Positions 10,119 through 30,800 of a stretch of 64,000 nucleotides of DNA are shown here, piece after piece. The notes under the pieces were generated by a model. The model saw only the letters and a list, made by a program, of their open reading frames with translations. It was not told the DNA's origin and made no database searches. This stretch comes from Patescibacteria group bacterium (GTDB taxonomy: Bacteria; Patescibacteriota; Saccharimonadia; Saccharimonadales; JAZKJC01): the NCBI GenBank assembly GCA_040384565.1, contig JAZKJC010000002.1, forward strand, positions 1,064 through 65,063. Direction: 5' to 3'. Every line of letters begins with the position of its first letter. The first letter of the stretch is position 1. A program made the position numbers and the translations under genes.

Positions 10119-10319
10119 TCATACTGTCTCCTTGATAAGTTGCTCGGATAAAACGGTTAACATACGCGCCAAGTCTTTGCGCTTGTTACGCAATTGCCGG
10201 ACATTGGTTGACTCACCCATATGAACTCGGCGGCGGATTTCTGCAATCTCAGCACGAAGTTTTGTGCTTTCAGTAGCCAAATCATCAGTTTTAAGTTTGC
10301 GGATTTCAACTATTTTCAT
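10119..10319 (-). CDS. rpmC: 50S ribosomal protein L29
   Basis: MKIVEIRKLKTDDL.. The ATG at 10319 is preferred; the track start is a TTG. Confidence 0.9.
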   Translation of the reverse strand: MKIVEIRKLKTDDLATESTKLRAEIAEIRRRVHMGESTNVRQLRNKRKDLARMLTVLSEQLIKETV

Positions 10320-13681: not shown

Positions 13682-14343
13682 TATTTGACCTCGGCTTTCG
13701 CGGCCTTAATTTTTGGAGTAAGCCAGGCGGTTACAAGTGCAAGGGCATCCTTGGTGATGGTAATATTATCGGCATTCATAACGTCATAAACATTGATATA
13801 TGTGGCTTGTATAAGTTTGATGTTCTGGAGGTTTTTTGTAACACGGACTATATCTTCCGTTTTATCAGCAACAACCAGAAGGGTAGTCTTGTTGGCACCT
13901 ATTTTAGTAAGTAGCCCGACAATTTCGCTTGTCTTAACTGTTTTGAGCGTAATATCTTCTAACACAATAAGCTTGTTTTCTGCGGCGGCAATACTTAGGG
14001 ATTGCCTTATTGCTTGGCGCTTGGCGCTAATATTAAGTTTGTGGCTATAATTTTCCAGCCCGGTAGGTCCAAAGGCAATACCACCACCACGCCAAATAGG
14101 GTTACGAGAAGAACCAAATCGTGCGCGCCCTGTGCCTTTTTGCTTCCACGGTTTGCGTCCACCTCCACTAACTAAACCACGGGTTTTGGTTTTTGCAGCG
14201 CTAGTGCGTCCATTGGCCAAGTAAGCAACGTAGGCAGTTTTGAGCAACTCGTGGTTTTTAGGGACAATACCAAATATTGCCTTATCTAACTTGGCAGGTA
14301 CTGTAGCTTTTGTGCCGGCCTTAGTAAATGTAGCAACCGACAT
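13681..14343 (-). CDS. rplD: 50S ribosomal protein L4
   Basis: ..GGGRKPWKQKGTGRAR.GS.R.P.WRGGG.. is the L4 signature. Confidence 0.95.
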   Translation of the reverse strand: MSVATFTKAGTKATVPAKLDKAIFGIVPKNHELLKTAYVAYLANGRTSAAKTKTRGLVSGGGRKPWKQKGTGRARFGSSRNPIWRGGGIAFGPTGLENYSHKLNISAKRQAIRQSLSIAAAENKLIVLEDITLKTVKTSEIVGLLTKIGANKTTLLVVADKTEDIVRVTKNLQNIKLIQATYINVYDVMNADNITITKDALALVTAWLTPKIKAAKAEVK

Positions 14344-14470
14344 CAGGCGCTCCCTCTGGTCGCTTCAATCATCAATTTACAATTATCAATTTCCAATGGG
14401 GCTACACTAGCTGCATTGGGTATTGATGTTTGATCCTTGAATGAAAATTGAAAATTGAAAATTGAAAATT
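14344..14470. repeat. Spacer (rplC|rplD): conserved leader box plus GAAAATT x4 (14443-14470) abutting the rplC stop
   Basis: Four perfect heptamers. The leader is homologous to those at 2187-2250 and 3249-3310. Confidence 0.85.
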
Positions 14471-15085
14471 TCATGACTCTTTACCCCGCACGAGTACAAT
14501 GGCTTTTTTAGGTCCGGGTATGGCACCAGTTACACCTATTACGCCGAGCTCAAGATCAACTAATGCGACTTTGAGGTTGCGTACCGTAACTTTTTCATCG
14601 CCCATTTGCCCGGCCATCTTCTTGCCTTTAAAAATCTTCTGGGGATACATGGAACCTATTGAACCAGGACGTCGATAGGAGCCACCGCCATGTGTCTTGC
14701 GTCCACGGTGAAAGTTGTGGCGCTTAATTGTGCCAGCCCAGCCTTTGCCCTTACTGGTACCAGTAACGTGGACGATGTCGCCTATACTAAAAACGTCGGC
14801 TGCAAATTGCGAGCCGACGCTTAGTTCTTCTGGCAGTTCTGTAATGCGGAATTCACGCACAAGCTTGGACTGCATCTTTGAGGGTTTAAAGTGCCCCGCA
14901 AGTGCTTTGCCCATCTTTGACACTGTTTCGGTACCTAGCTGCACGGCTTGATAGCCGTCGGTTTCTGTGTTCTTGATCTGGGTAACAACATTAGGCTTAA
15001 CTGAAAGTAAGGTAATAGCAACAACCACACCATCATCCGCAATAGTGCTTGTCATACCGACTTTTCTGGTAATTAATGCTTTCAC
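14471..15085 (-). CDS. rplC: 50S ribosomal protein L3
   Basis: (GTG)KALITRKVGMT.. is the L3 N-terminus; ..GKGWAGTIKRHNF.. motif. Confidence 0.94.
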   Translation of the reverse strand: MKALITRKVGMTSTIADDGVVVAITLLSVKPNVVTQIKNTETDGYQAVQLGTETVSKMGKALAGHFKPSKMQSKLVREFRITELPEELSVGSQFAADVFSIGDIVHVTGTSKGKGWAGTIKRHNFHRGRKTHGGGSYRRPGSIGSMYPQKIFKGKKMAGQMGDEKVTVRNLKVALVDLELGVIGVTGAIPGPKKAIVLVRGKES

Positions 15086-15789: not shown

Positions 15790-16272
15790 TCACATTTTGA
15801 TTTCGGCATCGCAGCCAGCTGGAAGCGAGAGATTCATCAAGCTGTCTATTGTCTTTGGTGTTGGATCAAATACGTCAATTAAGCGCTTGTGAACACGCAT
15901 CTCAAACTGCTCACGACCCTTTTTGTAAACATGGGGACTTTTAACTACTGTGTATGTGGTCTTTTTAGTTGGAAGTGGAATTGGCCCGGCAATAGTCGCT
16001 CCGGTACGGAGCGCAGTATCAACAATTTGTTTAGTTGAAAGGTCAATTACCTTGTGATCATAAGCCTTTAAGCGAATTCGTATCCGCTGCTTGGTACTAG
16101 CTTCCGGCTTACCGCCTGTTTGCTTAGCAGGCTTTGAAGCAGGTGTTGTAGGCTTAGCTTCTGCTACTGGCTCAGCCGCAACATCAGGTGCAACTACTTT
16201 TTCAGCCTTAAGTTTTGTATCTTCTGTTTTTTCTGCAACTTTAGCAGTGCTTTTCTTTTTAGCGTCGGCCAT
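15790..16272 (-). CDS. rpsJ: 30S ribosomal protein S10 with an Ala/Lys/Pro-rich N-terminal extension of about 60 aa
   Basis: ..[17 protein letters not shown].. S10 core. The ATG at 16272 has an AAGGAG SD. Confidence 0.93.
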
Positions 16273-16377
16273 TATGAACTCCTTGTGATGTAACATCTTT
16301 ACAGTTGTTATGTGGAACATCTGCAACGACTTTTAGTCACCACGATTAATTTACTTTTATAACTTTACTATATTCGC

Positions 16378-17691
16378 CTACTGTTGTAAAACGTTTGTAA
16401 ATAATGTTTTAAGAACACCTCTAGCTAGTAGCCCATAGGACTTAGTAGGCGCATTTACAAGTAGTCTGCCGGAATCAGCCAAGGCTCGCAGACCCAATCC
16501 ACTCCGTTCACTTAAAGTGGGTTTAACACCAAGATGCCCTGACGCAAAGTCTTTGCGGGCGTCAAGAACTGTATCAGCCAGGTAACCTGTTTTGGCAAAC
16601 AAGCGCAGCCATTTGTTAAAACGTATGCGGTTGTTATCATACGGATCCAAGTATAATATATCGCCAAACATTTCAGCTTCAGCTAGATTAATTTCAACTA
16701 CTTGACGGAGGCTATGAGATTTTAATCTCTTATCAGCAAAGCCTGTTAATGCTAGAAAGGTATTTATAAGCAACTGCTGCCTGTGAGGAACTTGCTGCAA
16801 GTACATATCCCTGAAAGCTTCAGCTTCCTTGCCCGTCATACCAGCGACTGGCTGGCCCCGTAATAGTTCAGCAACACTCCACTCCAACAAAGCCGGATCT
16901 TGTTCATCAACAAGATTATCTAAACAACGAGCTGCAAGCAGAGTAGCTCGCCAACATTCATGTTCTTCATCAGTAACCTGAACACCGAAACCCTCGGCCA
17001 CTGCATGGAACATAGCCGCACCACTTTCTCCCCGCAAGTGTTCTTCTTCAGATGTTCCATTGCGAACAGTATTATATGCAGCCCTAGCAGTTGCCAGAAT
17101 TATATCCATATCGCCGCGAAAGCTTGCTGTCTCGGCGTACTCAATGTCTAACAGAGCCCGTGTTCTTACCCAATCATCTGAACTTTCCGGACTATAGCCG
17201 TTCGTATGTTGGGATAATTGGAATTTTCCAAAAACTGCTGGTTTAGTTGTGTATCTTGAATATATCCACAACTTTTGTTCTGACGGGCTCAAAACATCCA
17301 GTGTTTCAACCACATCCTGCATTATTAATGGCCGAGGCCCAACCATAGACATGGTGCCATTGTAGATATTGAGAGTCTGGGGCATTTCATCCAGATGTTT
17401 AGAACTTAATCGTGCGCCGAGCTGAGTTCTTCGACTATCGTTAGATCCTTCAGATGCTGTTTCCGGAGTACCTGGAGGCATGGTTTGGAATTTATAAAAA
17501 GTGAACGGCTCAAATCCTAGCCCGTAACGAGTCTGTTTAAAAATCGGATTCATGCCATCACTATGCTGAATTGCTGCAGCAATTGCGGCGCTACCCGGTA
17601 CAAACAAAGGCATTAAAGCAGTAATGCCAATCAAATCTAGCGCCCGTTTATGTGGACTCAACGTCCAGTCTTCACCAATTTTCTCTGCCAT
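16378..17691 (-). CDS. Phosphoglycosyl transferase (Bac_transf-type) fused to an Asp-box, isoprenoid-synthase-like C-terminal domain
   Basis: N-terminal half: HKRALDLIG.., PIFKQTRYG, KFQTM, LDEMPQ, MVGPRPL. C-terminal half: ARCLDNLVDEQD and YLADTVLDARKDF. ATG at 17691 (MAEKIG), 7 nt after a TATAAT. Confidence 0.75.
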   Translation of the reverse strand: MAEKIGEDWTLSPHKRALDLIGITALMPLFVPGSAAIAAAIQHSDGMNPIFKQTRYGLGFEPFTFYKFQTMPPGTPETASEGSNDSRRTQLGARLSSKHLDEMPQTLNIYNGTMSMVGPRPLIMQDVVETLDVLSPSEQKLWIYSRYTTKPAVFGKFQLSQHTNGYSPESSDDWVRTRALLDIEYAETASFRGDMDIILATARAAYNTVRNGTSEEEHLRGESGAAMFHAVAEGFGVQVTDEEHECWRATLLAARCLDNLVDEQDPALLEWSVAELLRGQPVAGMTGKEAEAFRDMYLQQVPHRQQLLINTFLALTGFADKRLKSHSLRQVVEINLAEAEMFGDILYLDPYDNNRIRFNKWLRLFAKTGYLADTVLDARKDFASGHLGVKPTLSERSGLGLRALADSGRLLVNAPTKSYGLLARGVLKTLFTNVLQQ

Positions 17692-17835
17692 AAGTTTGAT
17701 TATAATAACACATAGTAATGAATTCAGCAAAATTGTGCATACTAAACTTCGTTATATTCAGTCCGGGCGTGTATTGTATTTCAGCTTGTTAACAAGCCGA
17801 GTCACAAAGTTCAAGCAATCGAGATAAAAATGTGC

Positions 17836-17901: not shown

Positions 17902-19083
17902 CTATTTGTTGATCTTAGTCACAACACCGGCACCAACTGTGCGGCCACCTTCGCGAATTGCGAAGCGCAGACCTTGTTCCATGGCAATTGGAGCTAACAG
18001 TTTAACCTTGAAAGTTATTGTGTCGCCTGGCATGACCATTTCTTTGTCAGCTGGCAATTCAACCTCACCGGTTACGTCGGTTGTACGGAAATAAAACTGA
18101 GGCTTGTAGCCTTTAAAGAATGGAGTGTGACGTCCACCCTCTTCTTTGGTAAGTACATATACTTCTGAATCAAATTCTGTGTGTGGAGTGATGGAACCTG
18201 GCTTGCAAAGCACTTGACCGCGCTCAATGTCATCACGCTCAATACCACGCAGCAAAACACCTACATTGTCACCAGCTTGACCTTGGTCAAGGTTCTTTTT
18301 GAACATTTCAACACCTGTCACCACAACTTTTTTGGTTGGGCGAATACCAACGATTTCAACTTCTTCGTTGATCTTTACAACACCTTGCTCGACACGGCCA
18401 GTAGCAACCGTGCCCCGGCCTTTGATAGAGAATACATCTTCAATAGGCATCAGGAATGGCTTTTCAAGTTCACGCTTTGGTTGCGGGATAAAATCATCCA
18501 TAGCCTTAACAAGTTCCATGATCGCGTCTTCGTCAGCAGCAGAACCCTCTAAAGCTTTTGTAGCTGAGCCTTTAATGATTGGAGCGTCTTCGTCAAAGTC
18601 ATTCTTGGCAAGAAGTTCACGAATATCCATTTCAACTAGTTCAACTAATTCAGGATCAGCTAGGTCCATCTTGTTCATAAAGACCAATATCTTAGGTACG
18701 CCAACTTGTTTTGCCAGCAATACGTGTTCGCGGGTTTGAGGCATAGGACCATCAGCGGCAGAAACAACCAAAACAGCGCCGTCAATTTGAGCAGCACCTG
18801 TAATCATGTTCTTGATATAGTCAGCGTGACCAGGCATATCAACGTGAGCGTAGTGGCGTTTTTCTGACTCGTATTCCTGGTGAGACGTAGCAATGGTTAT
18901 ACCACGGGCTTTTTCTTCTGGAGCATTGTCAATTTCGTCATATTTAATTGGTTTGTTGACGTCGCTTGGAAGCTTTTTAGCAAGCACGGTAGTAATAGCG
19001 GCTGTCAAAGTAGTTTTACCATGGTCAACGTGACCCATAGTACCAACGTTTACGTGCGGTTTACTTCTGTCAAAATCTGCCAT
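17902..19083 (-). CDS. tuf: Elongation factor Tu
   Basis: 393 aa, [11 protein letters not shown](M)PGHADY, NKMD motifs. Confidence 0.97.
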
Positions 19084-19210
19084 TGATGATCTCCTTTACC
19101 CTGAACTAATCAGGAGTAATTTAGTATTATTTAGCATGAGCTAAAACAACTCACACGAGTTACCAAACAATAGTACCCGACCTCAAGAAGTTTGTAAATA
19201 GCTGAGGTTG

Positions 19211-19636
19211 TTATTTTGCGTAATCCTTTAAGGCTGTAACTTTTGTGTTGGTAGCTTTGCCTTGGTGTTTTACATTATCGGTAACTAACTGGGCGTCATA
19301 TTGTTTCGCCAAGACTATAAAAGCCGCGTCGTAATAAGTTATTCCTAAACTCTCGGCGAGCAGAAAGGTCTTTTGCGCACTCGTACTGGTTTCACTGGAA
19401 TAAATTATGGGTAAGCTATACAAGGCTTCCAAGCAAACCTTGGCTTGCTTCATTGTCAATTGCTTGCCCTTAAGCAGGACGTTTCCAGTTTCATATTTTA
19501 GTAGCTCCGGTGCCATAAGCATGACCTTGCCAACCTCAGCATCTTGTAAAATTAGATCGGCTTGATCCAGGTCCTGCTCATTGTCTTTATTCAGCCATTT
19601 TATAACTACTGAAGTGTCGACTACCAGCCAACTCAT
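19211..19636 (-). CDS. vapC: PIN-domain toxin VapC
   Basis: MSWLVVDTSVVIKW.., acidic residues at ..ELLKYE.., ..YDAAF.., ..TDN.. 4-nt overlap with the upstream antitoxin. Confidence 0.8.
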   Translation of the reverse strand: MSWLVVDTSVVIKWLNKDNEQDLDQADLILQDAEVGKVMLMAPELLKYETGNVLLKGKQLTMKQAKVCLEALYSLPIIYSSETSTSAQKTFLLAESLGITYYDAAFIVLAKQYDAQLVTDNVKHQGKATNTKVTALKDYAK

Positions 19637-19890
19637 ATCCGACTTCGGTCTTGCTCCAAAAATTCAGCCGCACTTTTGCTGCCTTTTCCGGATATAGCTC
19701 GTGATTTTTGAATGTTGCGTTTGATTTGAACCCAATCCGTAGGTAATTGGTGGGGGCGTATAACAATTTCATCAGGATTAACAACAGATATAGAGACAGC
19801 CGAAAAGGGTGCGACCCAGCTTAACTGCTTGCGGACTTGATCGGGTATTGTTAACTGTCCTCTGTTTCTAATAATACTAATATTTTTCAT
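19633..19890 (-). CDS. vapB: AbrB/SpoVT-type antitoxin VapB
   Basis: ..IRNRGQLTIPDQVRKQL.. swapped-hairpin motif. Overlaps vapC. Confidence 0.75.
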   Translation of the reverse strand: MKNISIIRNRGQLTIPDQVRKQLSWVAPFSAVSISVVNPDEIVIRPHQLPTDWVQIKRNIQKSRAISGKGSKSAAEFLEQDRSRI

Positions 19891-19896
19891 ATAATC

Positions 19897-19925
19897 AGAT
19901 TATCAAATAATCAGAATTATGTCAA
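19897..19925 (-). promoter_or_regulatory. Promoter TTGACA-17-TAATCT, 6 nt before the vapB ATG (leaderless-type)
   Basis: Hexamers and spacing read directly. The direct repeat TCTGATTAT x2 overlaps the promoter and could be an operator. Confidence 0.5.
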
Positions 19926-19962
19926 AGACCGTTGGAGTTCATGGTCAGCATATTTTAATTTG

Positions 19963-22050
19963 CTATTTGCTATTTTTGGCGATGATGGCTTCGGCTACAT
20001 TGCTTGGCACATCTGCGTAATGGTCAAGTTCCATGCTGGAGCTTGCTCGGCCCTGGGTGCTACTGCGTAGGTTAGTTGTGTAGCCAAACATTTCGCCTAG
20101 CGGCACAAAAGATGTGATTTCTTTGATACCGGCGCTTAGATCTTCCATAGATTCTATGCGGCCACGCTTTGAGTTTAGATCACCTATAACGTCACCCATG
20201 AATTCTTCCGGTGTTACTACTACTACTTTCATAACTGGTTCAAGCAGGACTGGACTGGCTTTTTTGACACCGCTTTGCAGGGCCATTGAGCCGGCAATTT
20301 TGAAAGCCATTTCGTTACTGTCTACATCGTGGTATGAACCGTCATACAGTTCTGCTTTAACATCAACTACCGGGTAACCGGCTAAGACACCGTTATTCAG
20401 CGCTTCAATAATGCCTTGTTCTACGGGTTTAATGTACTCGCTCGGAACAACACCACCCTTGATGGAGTTAATAAACTCAAAGCCTTTGCCTTGCTCGTTT
20501 TGGCTCAGACGGATCCAGACATCACCGTATTGGCCACGGCCACCGGATTGCCGTATAAACTTGCCTTGGGCCTCTATGCCGTCTTTGCGGATAGTTTCGC
20601 GGTATGCAACCTGCGGCTGGCCAATGTTGGCTTCTACCGAAAACTCGCGCTTCATACGATCAACAATAATTTCCAGGTGTAGCTCTCCCATTCCACTGAT
20701 GATGGTTTGGCCGGTTTCTTCGTCTACCTTAATCCGGAAAGTTGGATCTTCTTCTGCTAAGCGTTGCATGGCAATGCCCATTTTTTCCTGGTCAGCTTTG
20801 GTTTTTGGCTCAATAGCAATAGATACGGGCGGTTCAGGGAATGTAATGCTTTCCAGGACAATTGGGCTGTTTGGATCGCAAAGCGTGTTGCCAGTCGTGG
20901 TGCCCTTAAGACCTACAATTGCGGCGATATCACCAGCTTCTACATCTGTCACGTCTTCACGTTTATCGGCTTGCATACGTACAATACGGCCAACACGCTC
21001 TTTTTCTCCTGTGGAACTATTCAGTACGTATGAACCAGCGGTAAGCTTACCGGAATATACCCGGAAATAGGCTAATTTGCCTACAAATGGATCGGTTGCA
21101 ATCTTAAAGGCTAGTCCTGCAAATGGCTCGTCGGCGCTAACTTTGCGTTCTATTTCGTCACCGGTTTTAGGGTGTGTTCCCCAAGTACTGCCACGGTTGA
21201 GCGGGCTCGGCAGTAAATCAACCACTAAATCCAGAACTTTTTCTACAATAACACCGCGGCCATCACCACCAGTTACGACAAAGAAATTTCCTGCCAATAG
21301 CGCGGAGCGAATCGCGTGTCGGATTTCGTCTTCACTTAAACCGTCTTCGCCGACCTCAAAGTATTTCTCTAGGGTTTTTTCGTCTTCCGCAACGGCGTTT
21401 TCAACCAAGAGGCTACGGTATTTTTTGACCTTATCCAACATGTCCGCGGGAATCTCTGTCTCAACCAGCTCTTTATCAGTAAAATCTTTATAGGTGTAGG
21501 CTTTCATGGCAATCAAGTCAACGACTCCATTGATTGCTTGCTCAAAACCTATTGGCAAATGGATAGGGAAAGCGCGTTTATTAAGACGGGCGTGGATGGT
21601 ATCGAGCGATTTGTAGAAGTCGCCGCCGGTTTGGTTGATCTTATTAATAAAGCAAATACGTGGCACATTGTACTTGTCAGCCTGGCGCCAAACGGTTTCA
21701 GATTGAGATTCCACACCCATTTTGCCATCAAACACAACAACTGCACCATCAAGCACGCGGAGCGAACGCTCTACCTCAACCGTAAAGTCAATGTGTCCTG
21801 GCGTGTCAATAATGTTAATCTGGTGGTCTTTCCAGTAGCAAGTTACAGCGGCCGAGACAATGGTAATACCCCGCTCGCGCTCTTGTGCCATCCAGTCTGT
21901 CGTTGTCTCACCATCATGTACGGCACCAATTTTGTGCTTAAGCCCTGTGCGGAAAAGAATCCCCTCAGTAGTAGTAGTCTTCCCAGCATCAATATGGGCA
22001 ATAATCCCAATATTCCGAATCTTATCCAACGCATATTTCTTAGCCGCCAT
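19963..22050 (-). CDS. fusA: Elongation factor G
   Basis: 695 aa, [17 protein letters not shown], five-domain length. Confidence 0.97.
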
Positions 22051-22401
22051 TTATTGTCTCCGATTTCTTATATTTGTTACAACTCCACGAGCAAAGCCTA
22101 CAAGTGTTCTACGTATAGGCTGGACATCCATTCTGTCCCTTGTGGGACATAACGAATTATCTGGACCAGCACAATTATCCAGTCTAGCCGTTGCATTAAT
22201 CTCCAATAAGCGCAATCTTAGTTTTGGCCCATCTAAAGTGGGTAAGCAATTGTCAGGCATACCGTCCGTGGCATTGCCTGGTATATCCATAGTATACAAC
22301 TCAACACTGCGCGCTTTCGCTGGGCAGACTATGCCTGTAGTAGGACACAAAATATCAGGATCTGCCGTGCCACTTTGTCCAGAAAATATTGCCTCAGTCA
22401 T
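22051..22401 (-). CDS. Hypothetical Cys-containing 116-aa ORF between rpsG and fusA (coding status uncertain)
   Basis: The stop abuts the fusA ATG, and the fusA SD lies within its 3' end. It has no SD of its own, and the opposite strand is also open here. Confidence 0.35.
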   Translation of the reverse strand: MTEAIFSGQSGTADPDILCPTTGIVCPAKARSVELYTMDIPGNATDGMPDNCLPTLDGPKLRLRLLEINATARLDNCAGPDNSLCPTRDRMDVQPIRRTLVGFARGVVTNIRNRRQ

Positions 22402-22421
22402 TATGTTCGGCGTGTCTTAAG

Positions 22422-22535
22422 GTTGCTGTATGAAGAGGCAGTACAAGGAAGCCGTGAAGCACGGAGCGAACCGTACTTTGCGGTACGGTGAGTGAGTACT
22501 GGAGCAGCTGACGCAGTAATGTGCTTCATACAGTG
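22422..22535 (-). other. Candidate four-helix structured RNA element starting 6 nt after the rpsG stop
   Basis: P1 CTGTATGAAG/CTTCATACAG (10 bp), P2 CAGTAC/GTACTG, hairpins CCGTG-AAG-CACGG and ACCGTAC-N6-GTACGGT. Confidence 0.4.
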
Positions 22536-22539
22536 GCCG

Positions 22540-23019
22540 TTAAAACCTGGCGAAGTGGGCAAAGGCCCTATTAGCTTCTGCCATTTTGTGAGTATCTTCT
22601 TTTTTCTTTACTGCTGATCCGGCGCTGTTGTATGCGTCTACTAGCTCTAGTGCCAGGCGGTCTTCCATGCTCATTCCCTTGCGGCTGCGAGCGGCGGCCA
22701 CAAACCACATCATTGTCAGGTGGTTTTGGCGCTGACCTTTGACCTCAAATGGGATCTGATAGTTGGCGCCTCCAACACGGCGGGAACGAGTTTCCATGTG
22801 GGGCTGGACATTCTTCATAGCTTGATCAAACACTTCCAGCGGGTTCTGTACTTTTAGTTTGTCGGCAGCTTTTTGCAAACCGCCATAGACCAAACGCTCA
22901 GCAAGCTGTTTCTTGCCGTTTAGCATGACACGGTTAATCAAACGCTGCACGCCCACACTATTATAGATTCGATCTGGCGGAATAACCCTAACCAGTGATT
23001 TGGTTACTTTACGCGGCAT
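22540..23019 (-). CDS. rpsG: 30S ribosomal protein S7
   Basis: MPRKVTKSLVRVIPPD.. The ATG at 23019 has an AAGGAGGTG SD. Confidence 0.95.
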   Translation of the reverse strand: MPRKVTKSLVRVIPPDRIYNSVGVQRLINRVMLNGKKQLAERLVYGGLQKAADKLKVQNPLEVFDQAMKNVQPHMETRSRRVGGANYQIPFEVKGQRQNHLTMMWFVAAARSRKGMSMEDRLALELVDAYNSAGSAVKKKEDTHKMAEANRAFAHFARF

Positions 23020-23326
23020 AGAATTCACCTCCTTCGCTGAACTTATCAGGACAAGCTGCCATCAAGTCTTGCCAGTCTTCAGGCCCAAGCGTGGATGGAT
23101 CTTGTCGAGCATCCCGGATAAGCCCATCGATGGCTTCAGGCGCAAGTGGTGATGTGGAGGTTGCTTCGGAAGCACTCTGCAATCCAGCTTCCCCGCTAAC
23201 CATATCAAGATTACTGCGTGCTCTGCCTAAAGCCAGGAGTAGAGCATATCCAGCACCGGCACCAACAATGTATGGTAGAGTAGGTGGGTTAATCCCATCA
23301 GATGGTTGATTAGTTTCAGCAGCCAT
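23009..23326 (-). CDS. Hypothetical 105-aa protein (one predicted TM helix) embedded between rpsL and rpsG
   Basis: TAATG overlap with the rpsL stop. The 3' end overlaps the rpsG start by 11 nt and encodes the rpsG SD (..SEGGEF..). Confidence 0.55.
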   Translation of the reverse strand: MAAETNQPSDGINPPTLPYIVGAGAGYALLLALGRARSNLDMVSGEAGLQSASEATSTSPLAPEAIDGLIRDARQDPSTLGPEDWQDLMAACPDKFSEGGEFYAA

Positions 23327-23739
23327 TATTTACTATCTTTCTTTGAGCCATATTTAGAACGGCCGTTTTTACGGTTAGCTACACCCTGGAGATCCAAAGT
23401 ACCTCGTACAACATGGTAGCGGACACCAGGAAGATCCTTTACGCGGCCACCACGAATCATGACAACGGCGTGTTCCTGCAAGTTGTGGCCTTCACCACCA
23501 ATGTACGCCCAGACTTCATGGCCGTTGGTTAGTCGCACGCGGGCAACCTTACGTAGGGCTGAGTTTGGCTTTTTAGGAGTTTTGGTAGTTACCTTGATAC
23601 AGACTCCCCGCTTAAAAGGCGCGGGTTTTTCGTAGTTTCTGGTCTTTAGGTTGTTTGTAACACGGTGCAAATGCGGCGAACTAGACTTCTTTTGTTTAGA
23701 AGCGCGTGGTTTACGTACTAATTGGTTAATAGTTGGCAT
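23326..23739 (-). CDS. rpsL: 30S ribosomal protein S12
   Basis: [12 protein letters not shown].. ..[10 protein letters not shown].. is canonical S12. Confidence 0.97.
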
Positions 23740-23849
23740 TTATACTCCTTTAGATGTGCAATCTACTGCTGCAAGCGAATGCCATACGCCAGGCTCAGAT
23801 TGCTTAGTGAACTTGTCAACATTAACAGATGTATTGGAATATTTCAACT

Positions 23850-26800
23850 CTAATTGTCTTCCAATACAATTTTTTGGTCCAAATCATGGGTTGGATTGTA
23901 GCCAGTTCCGACTGGAATTCGTCGTCCCAAGATGACATTTTCTTTAAGTCCATACAGTTTGTCTATCTTGCCGCTGGTGGCAGCCGCAATCAGTACGCGG
24001 GTGGTGTCCTGGAATGACGCGGCGCTCAGGAATGAATCGGTTGATAGGCTAGCTTTGGTAATACCGAGTAGAAGCTGAGTAACTTTAGCTGGCTGTTTAT
24101 TTTCAGCAACCAGGTTTTCGTTGGCTTCAACTACTGCTAGCTTGCTTACTATATCTCCAGTAACAAAGTCACTATTGCCAGCTTCTTCTACTTGTACGCG
24201 GCTGAACATCTGGCGCACAATGATTTCAAGGTGTTTATCGGCTATATTTTGGCCTTGTCCCGCAAAAATCCGTAGGATTTCGTTCATTATATAGCGCTGT
24301 GTTGGCTCGACACCCTGCAAGCGCATTAGTTCATGAAGATTTATTGAGCCGTTGGTCAGCCGCTGTCCAGCAACAACTTTGTCGCCATCTTTAATGTACA
24401 GCTGTTTGAAGCCTGGTATTTCGTAACGAATCAGGCTTTTGCTGGTTGGGACAATAACGACATGCTTGTCAGTTACTTCAGCTTTTCCGGCCATTGGGGA
24501 AATCAGTGGGTTGCTGTTATCTTCTTCTGCAGCAACGACGTCGCCAATGGCAACTTCTGTGCCGTTGGCAATATGCGCCTTGCGGCCAGCTAATACTAGC
24601 TTGACCTTTTCCTGATCATCGGCTGTAACCTGAACAATGTAATGGTCGTTTTCTTCCCAAGCCGCAGCTGTGCCGGCAATGTCAGACAAATATGCTTGTC
24701 CTTTAGGCGTACGCACCTCGAACAGTTCCTCTACACGTGACAACCCTTGTGCGGTGTCATCTGCAACCACACCACCTGAACGGTGTTTTGAGTCAAGGCT
24801 TAACTGCGTGCCGGGTTCGCCAATACTTTGGGCTGCGATTACTCCAATTGGATGATGTGCTGCAACCAAATTACCGGTAGCAGGATCTACGCCATATGAC
24901 CTTTGTGGCACACCATGTACGGAAGTGCATGAAAGCGCGCTCATAATCTTTATGCCATCAAGCTTGGCGTCCGCGTCAATTTTGGCAGCGACTTCTTTGC
25001 TGACCTGTTCGCCGGCTTTGATGTAGCCCTTGATGTCCTCGGCAACAAAACGGCCCTCCAGCCTGGATGCATAGCTTACGCCAATTTCTGTGGCATCAGC
25101 TCGCAGTAATGCGAAACCGGGGTCACCACTGTCCATTGGATCATCTTTGTCTATGGTGAAGACATCCTGGCCAACATCTACCAGTCGACGCGTCAGATAA
25201 CCGGCATCCGCAGTTTTAAGGGCAATGTCTATCAAAGCCTTCCGGGTGCCACGCGTACCGGTAAAGTACTCTAGTGGAGTTAGGCCCTTAACGTAACCTG
25301 ACTTAATAGGCAGCTCAATTGCGCTTCCGGTAGCATCCTGAAGCACACCGAGCATACCAACAGCGGAATTCATTTGGGAAATATTGCCACGAGCACCGGA
25401 GTTTATGGCAATAGCGGTAGAAGAAATTTGCCCAACCATCTGTTCGGAAAGCATTGCCTGAACCTTGCTATCAATTTTAGTCCAGGTATCAACCGTCAAA
25501 CGATAGCGCTCTTCCTCTGTAATGAAGCCTTGATCGTACTGGTCTGCAATTGCAGCGGTGCGTTCCTCACCAGCATCAACCACTTTCTGCATTCCCTTAA
25601 TTTCCACAAAGTCACTCATACCAATACTTAAACCGGAACGAGTCGCGTAGCGAAAACCCATATCCTTAAGTTCATCAGCTATCTCAGCGGTTTTTTCCTG
25701 ACCGTACTTTTGATATATGCGGCTCATGACTCCAGTCAATTTTTTCTTAGTCATCGGTTCGTCTTGGAAAGGAAAATCATCGGGGAATATTTCGTTAAAG
25801 ATTAGTCTACCTAGGGTTGTAACTATGATTTCATTGCGGAAAGGTACCCGAACATAGTCTTGTAGCGTAAGACTGCCGGAATCGTAAGCCATAATGGCTT
25901 CGTCAATACTCGTGAATGTCTGTGGTTTAGCTTTATTGCTTTCGCGCTCAAAGGTCAAGTAGTAACAACCGAGCACAATGTCTTGTTCGATGTGCAAAAT
26001 TGGCGAACCGTCAGCAGGCTTCAGCAGGTTTTTATTGCTGGCCATGATATCACGGGCTTCGTTTTGAGCAGCATCAGATAATGGCAGGTGGACAGCCATT
26101 TGGTCTCCGTCAAAGTCGGCGTTAAAGCCTTTACATACAAGTGGATGCAACTGAATGGCGCGGCCCTCAATTAGCACAGGCTGGAATGCCTGAATAGACA
26201 AGCGGTGCAATGACGGTGCCCGGTTGAGAAGCACATATTTGCCCTTAATAACTTCGTCAAGTGCGTCCCACACTGCCGTTTCACCAGTTTCGATCATGCG
26301 GGTTGCGGAACGAATGTTATGAGCAAAGTCGTTACGTATCAACCAACCAATTACAAAAGGCTTAAACAACTCTAAAGCCATCATTTTAGGTAGTCCACAC
26401 TGGAACATTTTTAGTTCCGGTCCGGCAACAATTACAGATCGTCCTGAGTAGTCAACGCGTTTACCAAGCAAGTTCTGACGGAAGCGGCCTTGTTTGCCCT
26501 TAAGCATATCACTTAGGCTCTTCAGTCGGCGGCGCTGACCAGTAGCAGCTACGGCACGTCCAGAGCGAGCGTTGTTGTTGTCAATTAACGCGTCAACAGC
26601 TTCTTGAAGCATACGTTGTTCATTGCGGCGAATAACTTCAGGAGCGTTGAGTTCAATTAATTTCTTAAGGCGATTATTACGGTTAATAACGCGGCGGTAA
26701 AGGTCGTTCAGATCGCTGGTAGCAAAACGGCCACCAGTTAGCTGAACCATTGGGCGAAGATCCGGAGGAATAACTGGCAACACACTGACACACATGCTGC

Positions 26801-27671
26801 TTGGCTTAATTCCGGCCCGCAGCATGCTTTCAAGCAGTCTCAGCCGTTTCATTAGCTTCTTCTTGCGTTGACCTTTGGCTTCCTCAGCCTCTTTGGTTAA
26901 TTCCGCAATCAGTGTATCGAGGTTTACGTCAACCAGCAGATCACGGAGCGATGATCCGCCCATACCTACCTCAATAATATCACTCAACTCATCCGGTAAG
27001 GCTCGATAATCGGTTTCGCTAATTAGGTTCAGCTTAGCTAGAGATGTAAGCTGAGCTTTAAACAGATCAAACTCTTCCTGGACCTCTTCCAGCTCTTTGG
27101 TCTGCAGTTCAGCTAATGCTTTCAAATTAGATCCTTCAGCGCTAGCTTCCTTTTCGTAGCGAAGCTTCACTGCTTCTTTCGCGGCAGCAAACTCTGCTTC
27201 TTTGTCAGCAAGAATTTGGTCACGCTTAGCGGTATCTACTTTCTTGATGATGTAGCTGGCAAAATACGCGACGCGCTCCAGGCTTTTAACAGTCATGCCA
27301 AGCAGCAGTCCAATGGCGCTAGGTGTCCCACGCAGGAACCAAATGTGGGCTACAGGACTAGCCAGGTTGATATGGCCCATGCGTTCCCGCCTGACGATAG
27401 ATTTAGTCACAATCTCGCCGTTTTTATCAACAGCTGCTTCGCGTGATCTAACGCCCTTATATTTAGCGTCATGTGGATTAATATCTTTTACGGGTCCAAA
27501 AATACGCTCACAAAATAATCCGTCGCGCTCTGGCTTCTGGGTTCGGTAGTTAATGGTTTCTGGCTTAACAACTTCTCCGTAGCTCCATTCCAGGATGTCT
27601 TCTGGGCTGGCTACAGCAAGTCTTACGGCGTCAAAATCAGCTATATCAGTTCCGCTATTGTAACGCTTCAT
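23850..27671 (-). CDS. rpoC: DNA-directed RNA polymerase subunit beta'
   Basis: 1273 aa, NADFDGDQMAVH catalytic motif. Confidence 0.97.
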   Translation of the reverse strand: MKRYNSGTDIADFDAVRLAVASPEDILEWSYGEVVKPETINYRTQKPERDGLFCERIFGPVKDINPHDAKYKGVRSREAAVDKNGEIVTKSIVRRERMGHINLASPVAHIWFLRGTPSAIGLLLGMTVKSLERVAYFASYIIKKVDTAKRDQILADKEAEFAAAKEAVKLRYEKEASAEGSNLKALAELQTKELEEVQEEFDLFKAQLTSLAKLNLISETDYRALPDELSDIIEVGMGGSSLRDLLVDVNLDTLIAELTKEAEEAKGQRKKKLMKRLRLLESMLRAGIKPSSMCVSVLPVIPPDLRPMVQLTGGRFATSDLNDLYRRVINRNNRLKKLIELNAPEVIRRNEQRMLQEAVDALIDNNNARSGRAVAATGQRRRLKSLSDMLKGKQGRFRQNLLGKRVDYSGRSVIVAGPELKMFQCGLPKMMALELFKPFVIGWLIRNDFAHNIRSATRMIETGETAVWDALDEVIKGKYVLLNRAPSLHRLSIQAFQPVLIEGRAIQLHPLVCKGFNADFDGDQMAVHLPLSDAAQNEARDIMASNKNLLKPADGSPILHIEQDIVLGCYYLTFERESNKAKPQTFTSIDEAIMAYDSGSLTLQDYVRVPFRNEIIVTTLGRLIFNEIFPDDFPFQDEPMTKKKLTGVMSRIYQKYGQEKTAEIADELKDMGFRYATRSGLSIGMSDFVEIKGMQKVVDAGEERTAAIADQYDQGFITEEERYRLTVDTWTKIDSKVQAMLSEQMVGQISSTAIAINSGARGNISQMNSAVGMLGVLQDATGSAIELPIKSGYVKGLTPLEYFTGTRGTRKALIDIALKTADAGYLTRRLVDVGQDVFTIDKDDPMDSGDPGFALLRADATEIGVSYASRLEGRFVAEDIKGYIKAGEQVSKEVAAKIDADAKLDGIKIMSALSCTSVHGVPQRSYGVDPATGNLVAAHHPIGVIAAQSIGEPGTQLSLDSKHRSGGVVADDTAQGLSRVEELFEVRTPKGQAYLSDIAGTAAAWEENDHYIVQVTADDQEKVKLVLAGRKAHIANGTEVAIGDVVAAEEDNSNPLISPMAGKAEVTDKHVVIVPTSKSLIRYEIPGFKQLYIKDGDKVVAGQRLTNGSINLHELMRLQGVEPTQRYIMNEILRIFAGQGQNIADKHLEIIVRQMFSRVQVEEAGNSDFVTGDIVSKLAVVEANENLVAENKQPAKVTQLLLGITKASLSTDSFLSAASFQDTTRVLIAAATSGKIDKLYGLKENVILGRRIPVGTGYNPTHDLDQKIVLEDN

Positions 27672-27817
27672 CGTCCGCTCCTCTCGCTCAAAATCTGAAA
27701 TTTGAATATCGAAATATGAAACAAATTAGAAATTTGAAATCCTAAATCTGAAACGTTTCGAACTTGGAAACTTCGTGCTTGTTTCTGGCTTCGTGCTTCT
27801 TGCTTCGTGCTTAACAT
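27672..27817. repeat. Low-complexity spacer (rpoB|rpoC): GAAAT/TGAAA-type units, GAAACGTTTC palindrome, CTTCGTG x3
   Basis: Seen directly. Confidence 0.7.
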
Positions 27818-30800
27818 TTACGCCTCCTCCTCATTAACGTCGTCATCTGCGGCAACTAGTGTTGAATCGTCATCGTCCGCTAAGGTGGTGTCATCAGTAA
27901 TCACGGTGGTGGCTGGCATATCATCTTCCATTTCCATGACAACAAAATCATCGCCAGGAACTTCCTCGGTAACATCTATATCGGAAATACTAGGCATAGG
28001 AACGTCTACTTGAGGTAGATTTTCTGATTCTTCCTTGATGTTTTCCGCTAGAATTTCTTCTGCGTCTATAACCTTGCTCTGCACAATTAAATCAATCTTT
28101 AGACACAGGCCTTGCAATTCTTTGACCAACACATTGAAGCTCTCTGGAACTTTTGGCCCGACAATTTCGGTACCCTTAATGATTGACTCGTAGGCTTTGG
28201 ATCGTCCGTAAACATCGTCAGATTTAATTGTCAACATTTCTTGAAGCGTATTGGAGGCACCGTAAGCTTCTAACGCCCAGACTTCCATCTCTCCAAATCT
28301 TTGGCCACCATTTTGGGCTTTTCCACCCAAAGGTTGCTGCGTCACCATAGTGTACGGTCCGGTGCTTCGGGCATGAATCTTATCCGCAATCATATGGTTC
28401 AGCTTGATCATATACATTGACCCAACGGTAGTCTTTTCCTTATAAGCATCTCCGGTGCGGCCATCAAACAGCTGTTGTTTTCCGTCTTCAGGGAAGCCAG
28501 CCTCTTTTAATAGTCCCCGGATTTTAGTTGGGGTCACGCCGTCAAATGCCGGACTGGCGACCGTGATGCCCAATGCCCGCGCCGCCATACCAAGGTGAGT
28601 TTCAAACAACTGCCCAATGTTCATACGGGATGGTACACCGAGCGGGTTCACAATGATGTCAACGGGCTTACCATCAGCCATAAATGGCATGTCCTCAACT
28701 GGCAGGATTCGGGCAATAACGCCTTTGTTACCATGGCGTCCACCTAATTTGTCGCCAACGCTAATTTTGCGCATTTGAGCAACAAAAACTTGAATCTGCA
28801 TTAACACGCCTGCCTTAAGCTCATGACCATTGGCTCGACTAAATACTTTGACACCCACGACTTTGCCGTGTTTGCCATTACTCATCCGCTGTGAAGTATC
28901 ACGGACTTCTTTGGCTTTTTCGCCAAATATAGCTCTAAGCAACCGCTCTTCAGAAGAAAGCTCTTGCTCTCCCTTAGGTGTAATCTTACCGACTAAAATG
29001 TCTCCAGGGTGGACTTCTGCGCCAATACGTACAATGCCTTCTTCGTCCAGATGGCGTAGGGCTTCTTCTGACACGTTAGGAATATCACGCGTGACAATTT
29101 CTGGCCCAAGTTTGGTTTCACGAACTTCTACCATGTAGTCAACAATATGAATAGACGTCAGGGTGTCATCTTCTACCAACTTGCGACTGATGATAATAGC
29201 ATCTTCAAAGTTGTATCCACTCCATGGCATGAAAGCTACAATCAGGTCTTTTCCAAGCGCTAACTCGCCGTTGGAAATTGACATTCCCTCAATCAGCGGA
29301 TCACCGGCTTTTACTTTATCGCCACTGCTAACAACAACTTTTTGGTTGATGCTAGTACCCTCGTTACTACGAATAAAATGTAGCGGATTGTAGGTAGTGG
29401 TTCCAGCTTTATATTTAACTACGACTTGCTCGCCTGTGGCCTGAAGTACTTCACCATCCGCGTCAGCTACTATTAACTGGCCGGTATTTCGCGCGGCTGG
29501 TGCTTCCATGCCCGTACCTATAATTGGTGCCTGCGGAATCACCAGTGGCACAGCTTGGCGTTGCTGGTTACTACCCATAAGGCTTCTATAAACATAGTTT
29601 TTCTCAATAAAGGGAATCAGTCCAGCACTTGAGCCAATAATTTGCTTACGTGACGCATCCATATGTGTAACGTCGTTGGCGTCAACTTCTCCGGCCTTTA
29701 GATTACGCCGGGCACTGACACGATCGTTAACAAAAAAGCCGTTTGAGTCAGTCTCCTCGCCGGCGCTTGCAATAACAGCCTGTTCTTCCTGGCTAGCATC
29801 TAAATACGAGACTTCACTGGTTACGACTGCTTTAACCGGCCAGGTAACCTTGCCTTTTACGGCAGCTAATTTTTTGGCATTATCAGCCGTGATCTTTGCC
29901 CCGGCTTTAACAATAACCTTACTTTTATCGTCTACTAAATCTTCAGCAGCAATGTGGCCGGGAGCATCTTTAGCGGTTGCAGAACTAATGACTTTTCGGT
30001 AAGGCGTTTCAATAAAACCGTATTCATTAATACGGGCGTAGGAAGCCAAGTTAAGCACCAACCCAATATTAGCGCCTTCAGGAGTTTCCACTGCGCAGAT
30101 GCGTCCGTAGTGAGTCGCATGGGCATCACGGACTTCAAAGCCAGCCCGTTCACGCGATAATCCGCCAGGGCCCATCGAGCTAAGTCGTCTTTTATGAGCC
30201 AGTTCGCTTAGTGGATTAATCTGGTCCATAAACTGTGAAAGCTGAGAGCTTGCAAAGAACTCACGCACTGCCGCTACCACTGGTCTAGCATTAATCAGCT
30301 GAGCTGGTGTAACTGTCTCGATCTCACTCATACTCATACGGTCTTTGGTGTTACGCTCCATACGCAGTAGTCCAATGCGGAACTGTCTTTGGACAAGCTC
30401 ACCTACTAATTTGACACGGCGGTTTGCCAAACTATCAATATCGTCTACTGGATCTTGAGTATTATTTAAGCGAATTATCTCGGCTACAATTGCAATAAGA
30501 TCTTCTAGCCGCATAATACGGTTTTCGGCAGTATTGGGTACATCTAGGTTTAGACGTTTGTTAATTTTATAGCGGCCAACCCGTGAAAAGTCAAAGCGCT
30601 TATAGTTGTAGAACATGTTTTCAATAAGGCCTCGGGCGTTATCAACTGTAGCTAAATCTCCAGGGCGGAGACGGCGATAAACCTCAATCAAGGCTTCGTT
30701 TGAGCCCTTTGTAGGATCTTTCTCTAAGGTTGCATCAAGATAATTTATTTTGCCTTGATCGACATGCTTAAAGGCTTCTTTCATGGTAGCTTCGTTCATG

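Follow-up and report, generated by a model that had tools for sequence, protein, structure and literature searches.

Few gene boundaries in bacteria are as conserved as the junction between the genes for ribosomal proteins S12 and S7 (rpsL and rpsG), which is usually seen either as a spacer with a regulatory role or as a plain overlap of the two genes. A neighboring junction of the same gene set is known to hold an additional gene: in Bacillus subtilis, ybxF (rpl7Ae), which encodes a conserved protein of the L7Ae family, lies between rpoC and rpsL. Variable gene content at a fixed position is familiar from a very different setting: in pneumococci, the variable capsule locus lies between the conserved genes dexB and aliA and is exchanged when these flanks recombine homologously. 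In E. coli, S7 binds the rpsL–rpsG spacer of the str operon and represses coupled translation (Dean, Saito and Nomura, summarised in PMC3616713); extended rpsL–rpsG spacers are found in many bacteria, and the E. coli intercistronic structure itself is reported to have a narrow distribution (PMC3616713). Where the stop codon of one gene overlaps the start codon of the next, experiments in other organisms have demonstrated coupling by termination-reinitiation (Huber et al. 2019, PMC6728339).

Here we describe an rpsL–rpsG junction of another kind, in a 64,000-nucleotide stretch of DNA (hereafter the window) from a member of the Saccharibacteria (GenBank assembly GCA_040384565.1, contig JAZKJC010000002.1). 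The two genes are separated by an insert of 306 nt that is occupied by a single open reading frame, ORF105, already predicted by gene callers (NCBI V4702_00680, ‘hypothetical protein’). The features of the region, including the Shine–Dalgarno (SD) sequence of rpsG, are these:

23326–23739, minus strand: rpsL, ribosomal protein S12, 137 aa (Pfam PF00164, E 3.8e-36); stop codon TAA
23324–23328, minus strand: TAATG, rpsL stop and ORF105 start overlapping by one base, the last base of TAA being the A of ATG
23009–23326, minus strand: ORF105, orphan acidic ORF of 105 aa (105 codons plus TAA), C-terminus ...SEGGEFYAA
23225–23278, minus strand: hydrophobic Gly/Ala/Leu-rich segment LPYIVGAGAGYALLLALG, ORF105 residues 17–34, followed by RAR; marginal membrane-anchor candidate
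23027–23146, minus strand: C-terminal acidic region, ORF105 residues 61–100; small helical module predicted by AlphaFold2
23026–23034, minus strand: rpsG SD, AAGGAGGTG, within the ORF105 codons for E-G-G-E and 6 nt upstream of the rpsG ATG
23009–23019, minus strand: 11-nt overlap of ORF105 and rpsG, ..TAT GCC GCG TAA over ATG CCG CGT AAA
22540–23019, minus strand: rpsG, ribosomal protein S7, 159 aa (Pfam PF00177, E 1.1e-54)
22051–22529, minus strand: rpsG–fusA junction, occupied by a chain of SD-less ORFs (ORF42, 22401–22529; ORF116, 22051–22401)

This geometry agrees with a preliminary description of the window, in which ORF105 begins at a TAATG shared with the rpsL stop, ends 11 nt inside rpsG and has the rpsG SD among its final codons. 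The extent of the second overlap follows from the rpsG start, for which tblastn alignment with 124 S7 genes, all of them beginning MPRK, establishes the ATG at position 23019; the GTG at 23028 given in an automated ORF list was dropped as a start on the same alignment. The stop codon of ORF105 is an out-of-frame reading of the conserved Arg–Lys codons of S7 (CGT AAA), and its ending, ATGCCGCGTAA, also occurs at two other loci (L082 and L083). Likewise, TAATG is also the motif that directly joins rpsL to rpsG in relatives, with a gap of −1 nt in 44 of 124, and comparison of the junction sequences reveals that the 3′ end of rpsL in the window lacks the AAGGAG found there in insert-less relatives.

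Comparing the junction across the Saccharibacteria reveals how it departs from the usual state. The gap between rpsL and rpsG measures only −1 to +9 nt in 107 of 124 loci, and the earlier assumption that a short regulatory spacer is the norm does not apply to this clade. Because the normal junction of the clade has no spacer, the S7 autoregulatory site of E. coli, which had been taken as the point of reference, is a poor one, and its reported narrow distribution is in line with this. Sixteen inserts of at least 106 nt are present when the window is included, and 14 of them consist of a single ORF that covers at least 99% of the gap, starting 0–2 nt from the rpsL stop and ending −2 to +10 nt from the rpsG start (Fisher combined p = 2e-14 for gap filling across inserts). 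Such filling ORFs, which span 35–105 codons, are found at 14 of the 125 junctions, or in about one relative in nine.

Although they share a position, the junction ORFs do not form one homologous family. The best pairwise E value among them at the protein level is 0.03 in a 16-sequence database, blastn and tblastx between inserts gave no matches, and the rpsL–rpsG junction ORFs show no similarity to those of the S7–fusA junction. Pfam searches with ten other junction ORFs were without a match, as was a protein search with a concatenated query of 13 junction ORFs and ORF116, which yielded 8000 candidates. An origin of the inserts from rpsL, rpsG or other local DNA was rejected after blastn and tblastx comparison with all loci and the window, and an apparent C-terminal ‘[hydrophobic]-G-x-[hydrophobic]’ motif was dropped as post hoc, pairwise and profile scores giving it no support. 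In a tree of S12 and S7 the insert-bearing loci are dispersed among insert-less sisters, and the sister taxa L005 and L011 have inserts that are unrelated to each other. Judging from these comparisons, ORF105 has been inserted where the junction is normally closed and belongs to a recurrent class of unrelated ORFs, a class that is defined by position and not by sequence family. With small acidic genes of other, unrelated kinds at this place in roughly one of every nine relatives, the junction looks like a slot for the gain, loss and possibly swapping of small genes.

Since ORF105 was sampled once, on a single MAG contig of a lineage that was itself sampled once, it is worth considering that it might be a chance ORF or an annotation artefact within an assembly insertion. 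However, when the 306-nt insert is shuffled, a filling ORF arises in only 0.7% of cases (p = 0.007), and the ORF105 frame is the sole stop-free frame of the six and also the sole one with a positive codon score. At 0.37 bits per codon, this score is comparable to those of rpsL (0.32) and rpsG (0.37); shuffles conditioned on an open frame score −0.05 ± 0.10, and 0 of 600 reach the observed value. The net charge of the product, −10, is likewise far from the shuffle null of +7 ± 4.4, with 0 of 600 shuffles as negative, and the GC content at codon positions 1, 2 and 3 is 0.66, 0.54 and 0.35. In other words, ORF105 has the codon usage and composition of its host to a degree that an open frame alone does not produce. 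Furthermore, the architecture recurs in 13 other independent assemblies, where one junction ORF is present on 37 contigs and variants of its cluster on up to 18, and 12 of the 13 filling ORFs outside the window have both a significantly gene-like codon score and a significantly negative charge, the exception being the 35-aa ORF of L005, which has neither. A chance or artefactual origin is very improbable in the face of these observations, and the proposal that ORF105 is a real, gene-like ORF stands; it is probably a real protein of a lineage-specific kind. A search for promoter- or terminator-like sites within ORF105 on the coding strand found none.

The coding statistics also bear on the idea that the 306 nt are an S7-binding or otherwise structured mRNA element in which the ORF is incidental, an idea for which the S7-mediated repression in E. 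coli and the extended spacers of many bacteria provide the precedent. The region of the window and that of E. coli do share their position between rpsL and rpsG, but in E. coli this place is taken by an untranslated RNA of about 100 nt that is structured and binds S7, whereas the window has one 306-nt ORF with strong coding statistics and no structure signal, set against an ancestral-looking Saccharibacteria state without any spacer. Specifically, the insert does not fold in excess of its dinucleotide shuffles (z = +0.21, with 59 of 100 folding as well), and an Rfam search of positions 19000–28000 at E ≤ 1 returned nothing except a chance SCARNA18 match upstream of rpsL; these results favor the coding reading. 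The insert thus has the character of neither an untranslated spacer nor a stable, conserved structure. Moreover, the inserts share no nucleotide conservation with one another, the substitutions in two positional analogues (below) are codon-like, and the default junction of the clade is spacer-free. A regulatory RNA is already disfavored on these grounds, and we give it hardly any credence. As a matter of annotation, position alone is no ground for naming long rpsL–rpsG spacers ‘S7 leader RNAs’.

The way in which ORF105 might be translated can be read from its two junctions. Same-strand stop/start overlaps are present at both ends, and a ribosome-binding site of its own is absent for ORF105 (−1.2 kcal/mol to the anti-SD) but not for rpsG, whose SD pairs with ACCUCCUUU at −13.5 kcal/mol, the strongest anti-SD match in the region. 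We infer from this arrangement that ORF105 is translated by termination-reinitiation after S12; because it has no SD, only those ribosomes that have just finished rpsL and start again at TAATG would translate it. These ribosomes would then pass through the rpsG SD and terminate 11 nt inside rpsG, and S7 would be made by de novo initiation on the strong SD, by reinitiation, or by both; given the strength of the SD, rpsG can probably also initiate independently. As a consequence of termination-reinitiation together with the rpsG SD arrangement, the ORF105 protein would be produced in step with S12 and S7, and the coupling of the operon would remain intact. In E. coli, the synthesis of S7 depends through coupling on translation of S12 over the intercistronic region, and the insert of the window, where such coupling is predicted, has the same operon position. 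With the pairs of Huber et al., ORF105 shares the one-base TAATG overlap at its 5′ end, a short overlap at its 3′ end and the lack of a preceding SD; the differences are that coupling is here a prediction and that the downstream SD is very strong. An ORF at this place had also been supposed to alter the coupling of S7 and EF-G translation, and it may conceivably do so; the rpsG SD is of normal or greater strength in all insert-bearing loci, that of the window being the strongest. The possibility that rpsG offsets the insert by a stronger SD across loci was rejected, as the means differ little (−8.7 kcal/mol in insert-bearing loci versus −8.05 kcal/mol, p = 0.45).

The predicted product is strongly acidic, with a pI of 4.05. 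It had been described as having a single hydrophobic helix that would make it a single-transmembrane protein, and the segment LPYIVGAGAGYALLLALG does exist, with a Gly- and Ala-rich hydrophobic core of 16–18 residues. Its transmembrane status is marginal, however: the Kyte–Doolittle 19-residue maximum is 1.49 against a usual cut-off of 1.6, and the AlphaFold2 helix at residues 24–40 has low confidence (pLDDT about 50), so that ORF105 is a possible rather than an established single-transmembrane protein. The AlphaFold2 model, made from the single sequence with an overall pLDDT of 60 (low confidence), places C-terminal helices at residues 63–75, 82–91 and 93–96 with pLDDT of 74–83, and a Foldseek comparison of this model with the PDB gave no fold match (best E 2.4). 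The protein would have a helical C-terminal part and may be anchored by one weak hydrophobic helix.

ORF105 is an orphan, without a homologue in the collections searched. A word-indexed search of 5.8 billion proteins matched only ORF105 itself, and a full HMMER search of 1.84 billion representative proteins returned ORF105 and one TPR-repeat protein, which was rejected as a homologue because its score is summed over four repeats with about 36% identity over 39 aa. There was no match to any family in Pfam, NCBIfam, PHROGs or PADLOC, and neither a metagenome scan with ORF105 nor phage records contained a relative. Genome and metagenome scans based on S7 found no orthologue in any collection searched, the closest S7 being only 89–90% identical. 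In being small, without homologues and predicted by standard gene callers, ORF105 resembles the orphan small genes of other Patescibacteria; it differs from them in its fixed position, its double coupling, the consistent acidity of its class and the repeated presence of unrelated ORFs in this one junction. Similarly, it resembles ybxF as a small non-canonical gene among rpoC, rpsL, rpsG and fusA, but it lies between S12 and S7 and has no family, whereas ybxF is at another junction.

Evidence of selection comes from two positional analogues that are not homologous to ORF105 and that have close relatives of their own, and both of these show codon-like substitution and no frame-disrupting changes, an outcome that favors the coding reading. 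Between the inserts of L083 and L161, dN is 0.043 and dS 0.295 (ratio 0.15), third positions account for 10 of 16 differences, and the other two frames give ratios of 1.6–1.9. In the L006 family, 15 of the 17 protein variants of the cluster were read, all of 72 aa; pN/pS is mostly 0.2–0.5, and the third-position excess is marginal (12 of 23, p = 0.048). These values count against a reading in which the insert is simply tolerated DNA, kept open and translated so that ribosomes reach rpsG without an untranslated gap, and with it coupling loss and Rho polarity, the peptide being functionless, and acidic and well-coded only because an abundant junk peptide must be soluble, harmless and cheaply translated. 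Such a reading is supported by a geometry that is identical while the insert sequences are unrelated, even in the sister taxa L005 and L011, and by an rpsG SD of normal strength in every insert. At the rpsG start, TAATG or the conserved CGTAAA/CCTAG automatically closes two of three reading frames, and in the L006 family no part of the locus varies as much as the insert (10.6% of sites variable, against 0.7–2.5% elsewhere); both facts fit this reading too. Nonetheless, the ratio of 0.15, the low pN/pS at constant length, and a charge and codon score far beyond open-frame nulls in 13 of 14 filling ORFs all argue against it, and the cheapest coupling is no insert at all, as the insert-less relatives show. 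Part of the selection, charge and codon signals could result from generic constraints such as solubility, and selection could favor good codons and an acidic, soluble composition even in a product without a function of its own. On balance we regard a functionless peptide as unlikely, and consider it reasonably probable that ORF105 is a true gene, specific to its lineage, whose translation gives a small and strongly acidic protein, and that it was inserted into the normally closed rpsL–rpsG junction of the str operon.

The age of one insert adds to this reading of ORF105 as a genuine inserted gene. In the single pair L083/L161, one member of which is a contig of 571 bp, the insert dS of 0.295 is far lower than the dS of 1.48 in the adjoining rpsL, and the rpsL of L161 is no nearer to that of L083 than to those of other clade members; because the insert is so much younger than its flanks, it suggests exchange between lineages. 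Capsule-type loci offer a parallel, with unrelated content at a fixed position, very conserved flanks, a patchy distribution over the tree and, here in one allele, an age much below that of the flanks. The differences are that the unit at this junction is a single promoter-less ORF of 35–105 codons within an essential ribosomal operon, that its translational coupling is inferred, and that exchange is indicated by one pair only. It is possible, and we put it forward tentatively, that the rpsL–rpsG and rpsG–fusA junctions of Saccharibacteria form an ‘expression slot’, in which lineages gain, lose and trade unrelated, promoter-less genes for small acidic proteins through homologous recombination in the ultra-conserved flanks, and translational coupling alone gives these genes the expression level of ribosomal proteins; ORF105 would be a cassette of this kind, a recently born gene or a fast-evolving accessory factor acting, for example, on the ribosome or at the epibiont–host interface. 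Our guess is that the product is accessory and dispensable, and that the slot lends it expression at the level of ribosomal proteins.

While the practical result for ORF105 itself is modest, the essential operon of a reduced-genome lineage appears repeatedly to host unrelated small genes that have coding-like composition, fill the junction exactly and are probably coupled at both ends. This provides a system for asking how small genes that are new or foreign come to be expressed when they lack a promoter or SD, whether translational coupling acts as a filter on which insertions survive, and whether conserved flanks let small genes cross species boundaries.

A functional variant of our preferred reading, that of a genuine acidic protein, would have the junction ORFs, including ORF105, act on the very basic S12 and S7 as an escort, an assembly factor or a modulator of S7 autoregulation, which would explain both stoichiometric co-expression and shared acidity. 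The position within the S12–S7 pair is suggestive, as are the acidity, which departs strongly from the compositional null, and the pI of 4.05–5.46 in all rpsL–rpsG filling ORFs save the 35-aa ORF of L005. We nevertheless hold such a role to be improbable: what speaks for it is purely compositional, the ORFs share no sequence or motif conservation, 107 of 124 relatives manage without one, and no similarity to a known ribosome-associated family was seen in Pfam, NCBIfam or Foldseek/PDB. Most ORFs of the adjoining S7–fusA junction are acidic too. Also, the neighboring junctions of the operon in the window are likewise filled with inserted genes.

The source of the window is a metagenome-assembled genome of the Saccharibacteria (Patescibacteria), and the S7 genes closest to its own are all from Saccharibacteria assemblies. 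Between rpsL (S12) and rpsG (S7) it carries a 105-codon ORF, here ORF105, which NCBI labels 'hypothetical protein V4702_00680, Patescibacteria group bacterium'. The genes lie in the following order:

23850-27671, minus strand: rpoC
23326-23739, minus strand: rpsL
23009-23326, minus strand: ORF105
23026-23034, minus strand: AAGGAGGTG, the rpsG Shine-Dalgarno sequence (SD), inside the last codons of ORF105
22540-23019, minus strand: rpsG
22051-22529, minus strand: two small chained ORFs
19963-22050, minus strand: fusA

The rpsL stop and the ORF105 start have one base in common, in TAATG. ORF105 ends in ..AGC GAA GGA GGT GAA TTC TAT GCC GCG TAA. Alignment with other S7 genes, every one of which opens with MPRK, puts the rpsG start at the ATG at 23019, 11 nt ahead of the last base of the ORF105 stop. 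The preliminary description had this geometry exactly right, in the TAATG, the 11-nt overlap and the placement of the rpsG SD within the end of the ORF.

This arrangement departs from the usual one. Among 160 loci fetched via S7 from genomes and metagenomes, 124 are Saccharibacteria loci in which the end of rpsL and the start of rpsG are both present, and in 107 of these the two genes are separated by -1 to +9 nt, mostly as TAATG overlaps or a 2-nt gap, with rpsG served by an AAGGAG within the last rpsL codons; ORF105 is thus an insertion into a junction that is normally closed. Seventeen loci have a gap of at least 45 nt, and inserts of at least 106 nt occur at 16 junctions, including the window's. 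In 14 of the 16, a single ORF takes up at least 99% of the inserted sequence, starting 0-2 nt from the rpsL stop and ending -2 to +10 nt from the rpsG ATG; the shuffle p-values of these filling ORFs are individually 0.0005-0.17, and Fisher's combination gives 2e-14. The two exceptions are L102, with an AT-rich non-coding spacer, and L100, in which the first 79 nt of the insert are a 7-nt periodic repeat. L001 was left out of these statistics because it is a scaffolding or masking artefact, in which a duplicated rpsL 3′ part borders a run of N at about 2733-2890. Where rpsG starts, TAATG or conserved Arg-Lys codons read out of frame (CGTAAA/CCTAGA) close two of the three frames, so part of the tight 3′ coupling comes free; an open frame through the insert, unlike that part, is not free.

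The insert-bearing loci are scattered over a neighbour-joining tree of S12 and S7, most having insert-less close neighbours, among them the window, whose nearest relatives (L081 and L099) are both insert-less. The only sister pair in which both members have inserts, L005 and L011, carries unrelated ones of 106 and 267 nt. No similarity was detected among the junction ORFs, ORF105 included (best pairwise E 0.03 in a 16-sequence database), blastn and tblastx gave no matches between inserts, and no Pfam domain was found in ten junction ORFs. We found no paper on rpsL, rpsG and Saccharibacteria together. At L025, a 14-15-nt direct repeat, GAGAGCAAGTAATG, flanks the insert (2666-2680 and 2875-2889) and repeats the usual rpsL-end/rpsG-start junction on either side of it, as would follow from an insertion that copied the junction; such a repeat would allow precise loss. 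One contig labelled 'Dongiaceae bacterium', an alphaproteobacterial family (L040, DATMTU010000041.1), has a Saccharibacteria-type rpsL-rpsG junction and an S7 68% identical to the window's, and is probably mis-binned.

Several statistics agree that ORF105 is a genuine coupled ORF, as first described, and probably translated. When the interior of the 306-nt insert is shuffled, a gap-filling ORF arises in just 0.7% of trials, and among the six frames only that of ORF105 is both stop-free and positive in codon score. With codon usage modelled on 16 of the window's long genes, ORF105 scores 0.37 bits per codon, level with rpsL (0.32) and rpsG (0.37), and its GC content by codon position is 0.66/0.54/0.35. 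Since an ORF that served coupling only would also be stop-free, the null was made of shuffles conditioned on being open: these score -0.05 +/- 0.10, with 0 of 600 reaching 0.37, and their expected net charge is +7 +/- 4.4 against -10 for ORF105, with 0 of 600 as negative. The preliminary description had raised RNA structure as the alternative, and here the RNA shows no gain in folding over shuffled sequences (z = +0.21) and has no match in Rfam; nor does the coding strand inside ORF105 hold a promoter- or terminator-like site. On the codon, charge and frame statistics and the lack of an RNA-structure or Rfam signal, ORF105 has the behaviour of a gene that is translated and whose acidic composition is selected, rather than that of a structured spacer. 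The filling ORFs as a group, ORF105 included, are acidic (pI 4.05-5.46), save the 35-aa ORF of L005, and except for that one each lies far from its own open-frame null in charge and codon score.

As a protein, ORF105 is alone. A word-indexed search of 5.8 billion proteins returned only ORF105 itself, and neither a metagenome scan, nor phage records, nor Pfam, NCBIfam, PHROGs and PADLOC gave a relative or a match. A full HMMER pass over 1.84 billion representatives returned ORF105 and one TPR-repeat protein, which we rejected as a homologue, its score being the sum of four weak repeat matches. The single-sequence AlphaFold2 model is poor overall (pLDDT 60). It predicts that the C-terminal residues 61-100 are helical (pLDDT 74-83), and at residues 24-40 it places a helix of low confidence; Foldseek found no match to the model in the PDB. 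Of the single transmembrane segment first proposed, the hydrophobic stretch is real, but as a membrane helix it is marginal (Kyte-Doolittle maximum 1.49). Taken alone, then, ORF105 is an unremarkable orphan; what makes it interesting is its membership of a class that recurs at this particular position.

Conservation of the reading frame, suggested at the outset as a means of judging the ORF, can be followed in two positional analogues. Contig L161 carries an allele 90% identical to the 61-aa ORF of L083, and between the two inserts dN is 0.043 and dS 0.295 (ratio 0.15), with 10 of 16 differences at third positions and ratios of 1.6-1.9 in the other two frames. The adjoining rpsL has a dS of 1.48, and the L161 rpsL is no closer to that of L083 (81% identity) than to those of other clade members (about 80%); on these values, purifying selection acts on the protein that the insert encodes, and the insert is far younger than the genes beside it. 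Such an age difference is what would be expected if lineages had exchanged the insert by recombination through the conserved flanks, in what is one case with one partner on a 571-bp contig. In the pairwise alignment the tract of high identity appears to begin in the last ~25 nt of rpsL and to break off about 30 nt into rpsG (bounds set by eye). The 90% cluster that contains the 72-aa ORF of L006 has 17 protein variants, one found on 37 contigs and another on 18; all 15 variants read are 72 aa long, and in 7 of 7 loci with DNA examined the ORF occupies the rpsL-rpsG junction, joined by TAATG on each side. Pairwise pN/pS in this family is mostly 0.2-0.5. No other part of the locus varies as much as the insert, where 10.6% of sites are variable; the figure is 0.7% for rpsL, 2.5% for rpsG and about 3% for the S7-fusA gap. 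These insert genes, like those of L083 and L161, are thus constrained but fast-evolving.

It is worth considering how such a gene would be expressed. At the 3′ end of every filling ORF lies an rpsG SD of normal strength (mean -8.7 kcal/mol, against -8.05 in insert-less loci), whereas the SDs before insert ORFs are weaker (mean -5.7 kcal/mol, p = 0.011), that before ORF105, at -1.2 kcal/mol, being tied for weakest. Because ORF105 has no SD, only ribosomes that have completed rpsL and begin again at the overlapping ATG would translate it; restarting at such stop/start overlaps has been shown experimentally in other organisms (PMC6728339). These ribosomes would pass over the rpsG SD and terminate 11 nt inside rpsG, and since that SD is the strongest of the region, S7 synthesis could start either from new initiation or from reinitiation. 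The S7 protein of E. coli binds a structured spacer and represses its own coupled translation (PMC3616713). The analogy first drawn to that site does not fit this clade, as nothing like such a spacer is visible at the window's junction and the default Saccharibacteria junction leaves no room for one. The interpretation first offered is therefore supported in part, with the regulatory effect that it proposed for the ORF as a possible consequence. We read the ORF105 product as a dispensable, lineage-specific accessory protein that uses the junction slot for expression, its function being a guess. The main alternative, in which the peptide does nothing and what counts is that ribosomes translate across the insert, we consider rather unlikely: some of the signals could also arise if selection merely kept a highly expressed peptide soluble and harmless, but the consistent acidity, the gene-like codon scores and the dN/dS below 1 in the analogues favour an accessory protein.

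Extra genes also occupy other junctions of the window downstream of rpsL:

22401-22529, minus strand: ORF42, in the rpsG-fusA gap
22051-22401, minus strand: ORF116, in the rpsG-fusA gap
19633-19890, minus strand: 85-aa ORF, N-terminus AbrB/SpoVT-like by eye, without a profile match
19211-19636, minus strand: 141-aa PIN-domain ORF (PF01850, E 9.6e-9)
16378-17730, minus strand: Bac_transf sugar transferase, between tuf and rpsJ (region 15790-17730)

In the 489-nt rpsG-fusA gap, ORF42 and ORF116 are chained by TAATG and TAA-ATG without an SD, and neither matches a family. Most relatives have in this gap one ORF of 67-150 aa (loci L003-L029, L064, L066 and L082-L113), mostly acidic, often with 4-5 Cys in CxxC-like pairs, and hypervariable, with detectable similarity in few pairs only; a CPTTGxxC motif is common to ORF116 and the L096 ORF (E 0.006). 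In the L006 family (L006, L165-L171), an 18-codon ORF, MPRPVDNSNNIEQTIGDK, begins 3 nt past the S7 stop, mimics the S7 N-terminus MPRK in its first residues and overlaps the start of a 75-aa Cys-rich ORF by ATGA. The 85-aa and PIN-domain ORFs, in the fusA-tuf junction (19211-19890, minus strand), also overlap by ATGA and resemble a toxin-antitoxin pair. The listed rpsJ ORF is 178 aa with a TTG start; its S10 domain occupies residues 83-177 only, so the true start is probably further downstream.

An intergenic repeat family precedes several ribosomal-protein genes of the window (2182-2269, 3244-3395, 9952-10123 and 14339-14478), in which a conserved leader-like block (the complement of GCGCTCCCTCCGGTCGCTTCAAT, containing GGAGGGAG) adjoins arrays of a 7-nt periodic unit, AATTGAA/AATTGTA. 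Two such arrays form an inverted repeat, facing each other, at 14339-14478, and the non-coding first 79 nt of the L100 insert (603-680) are an array of the same kind. A 2038-aa ORF (57777-63893, minus strand), with internal diverged repeats of families D2, D5 and D9 at 57889-59779, is probably a large repetitive surface protein.
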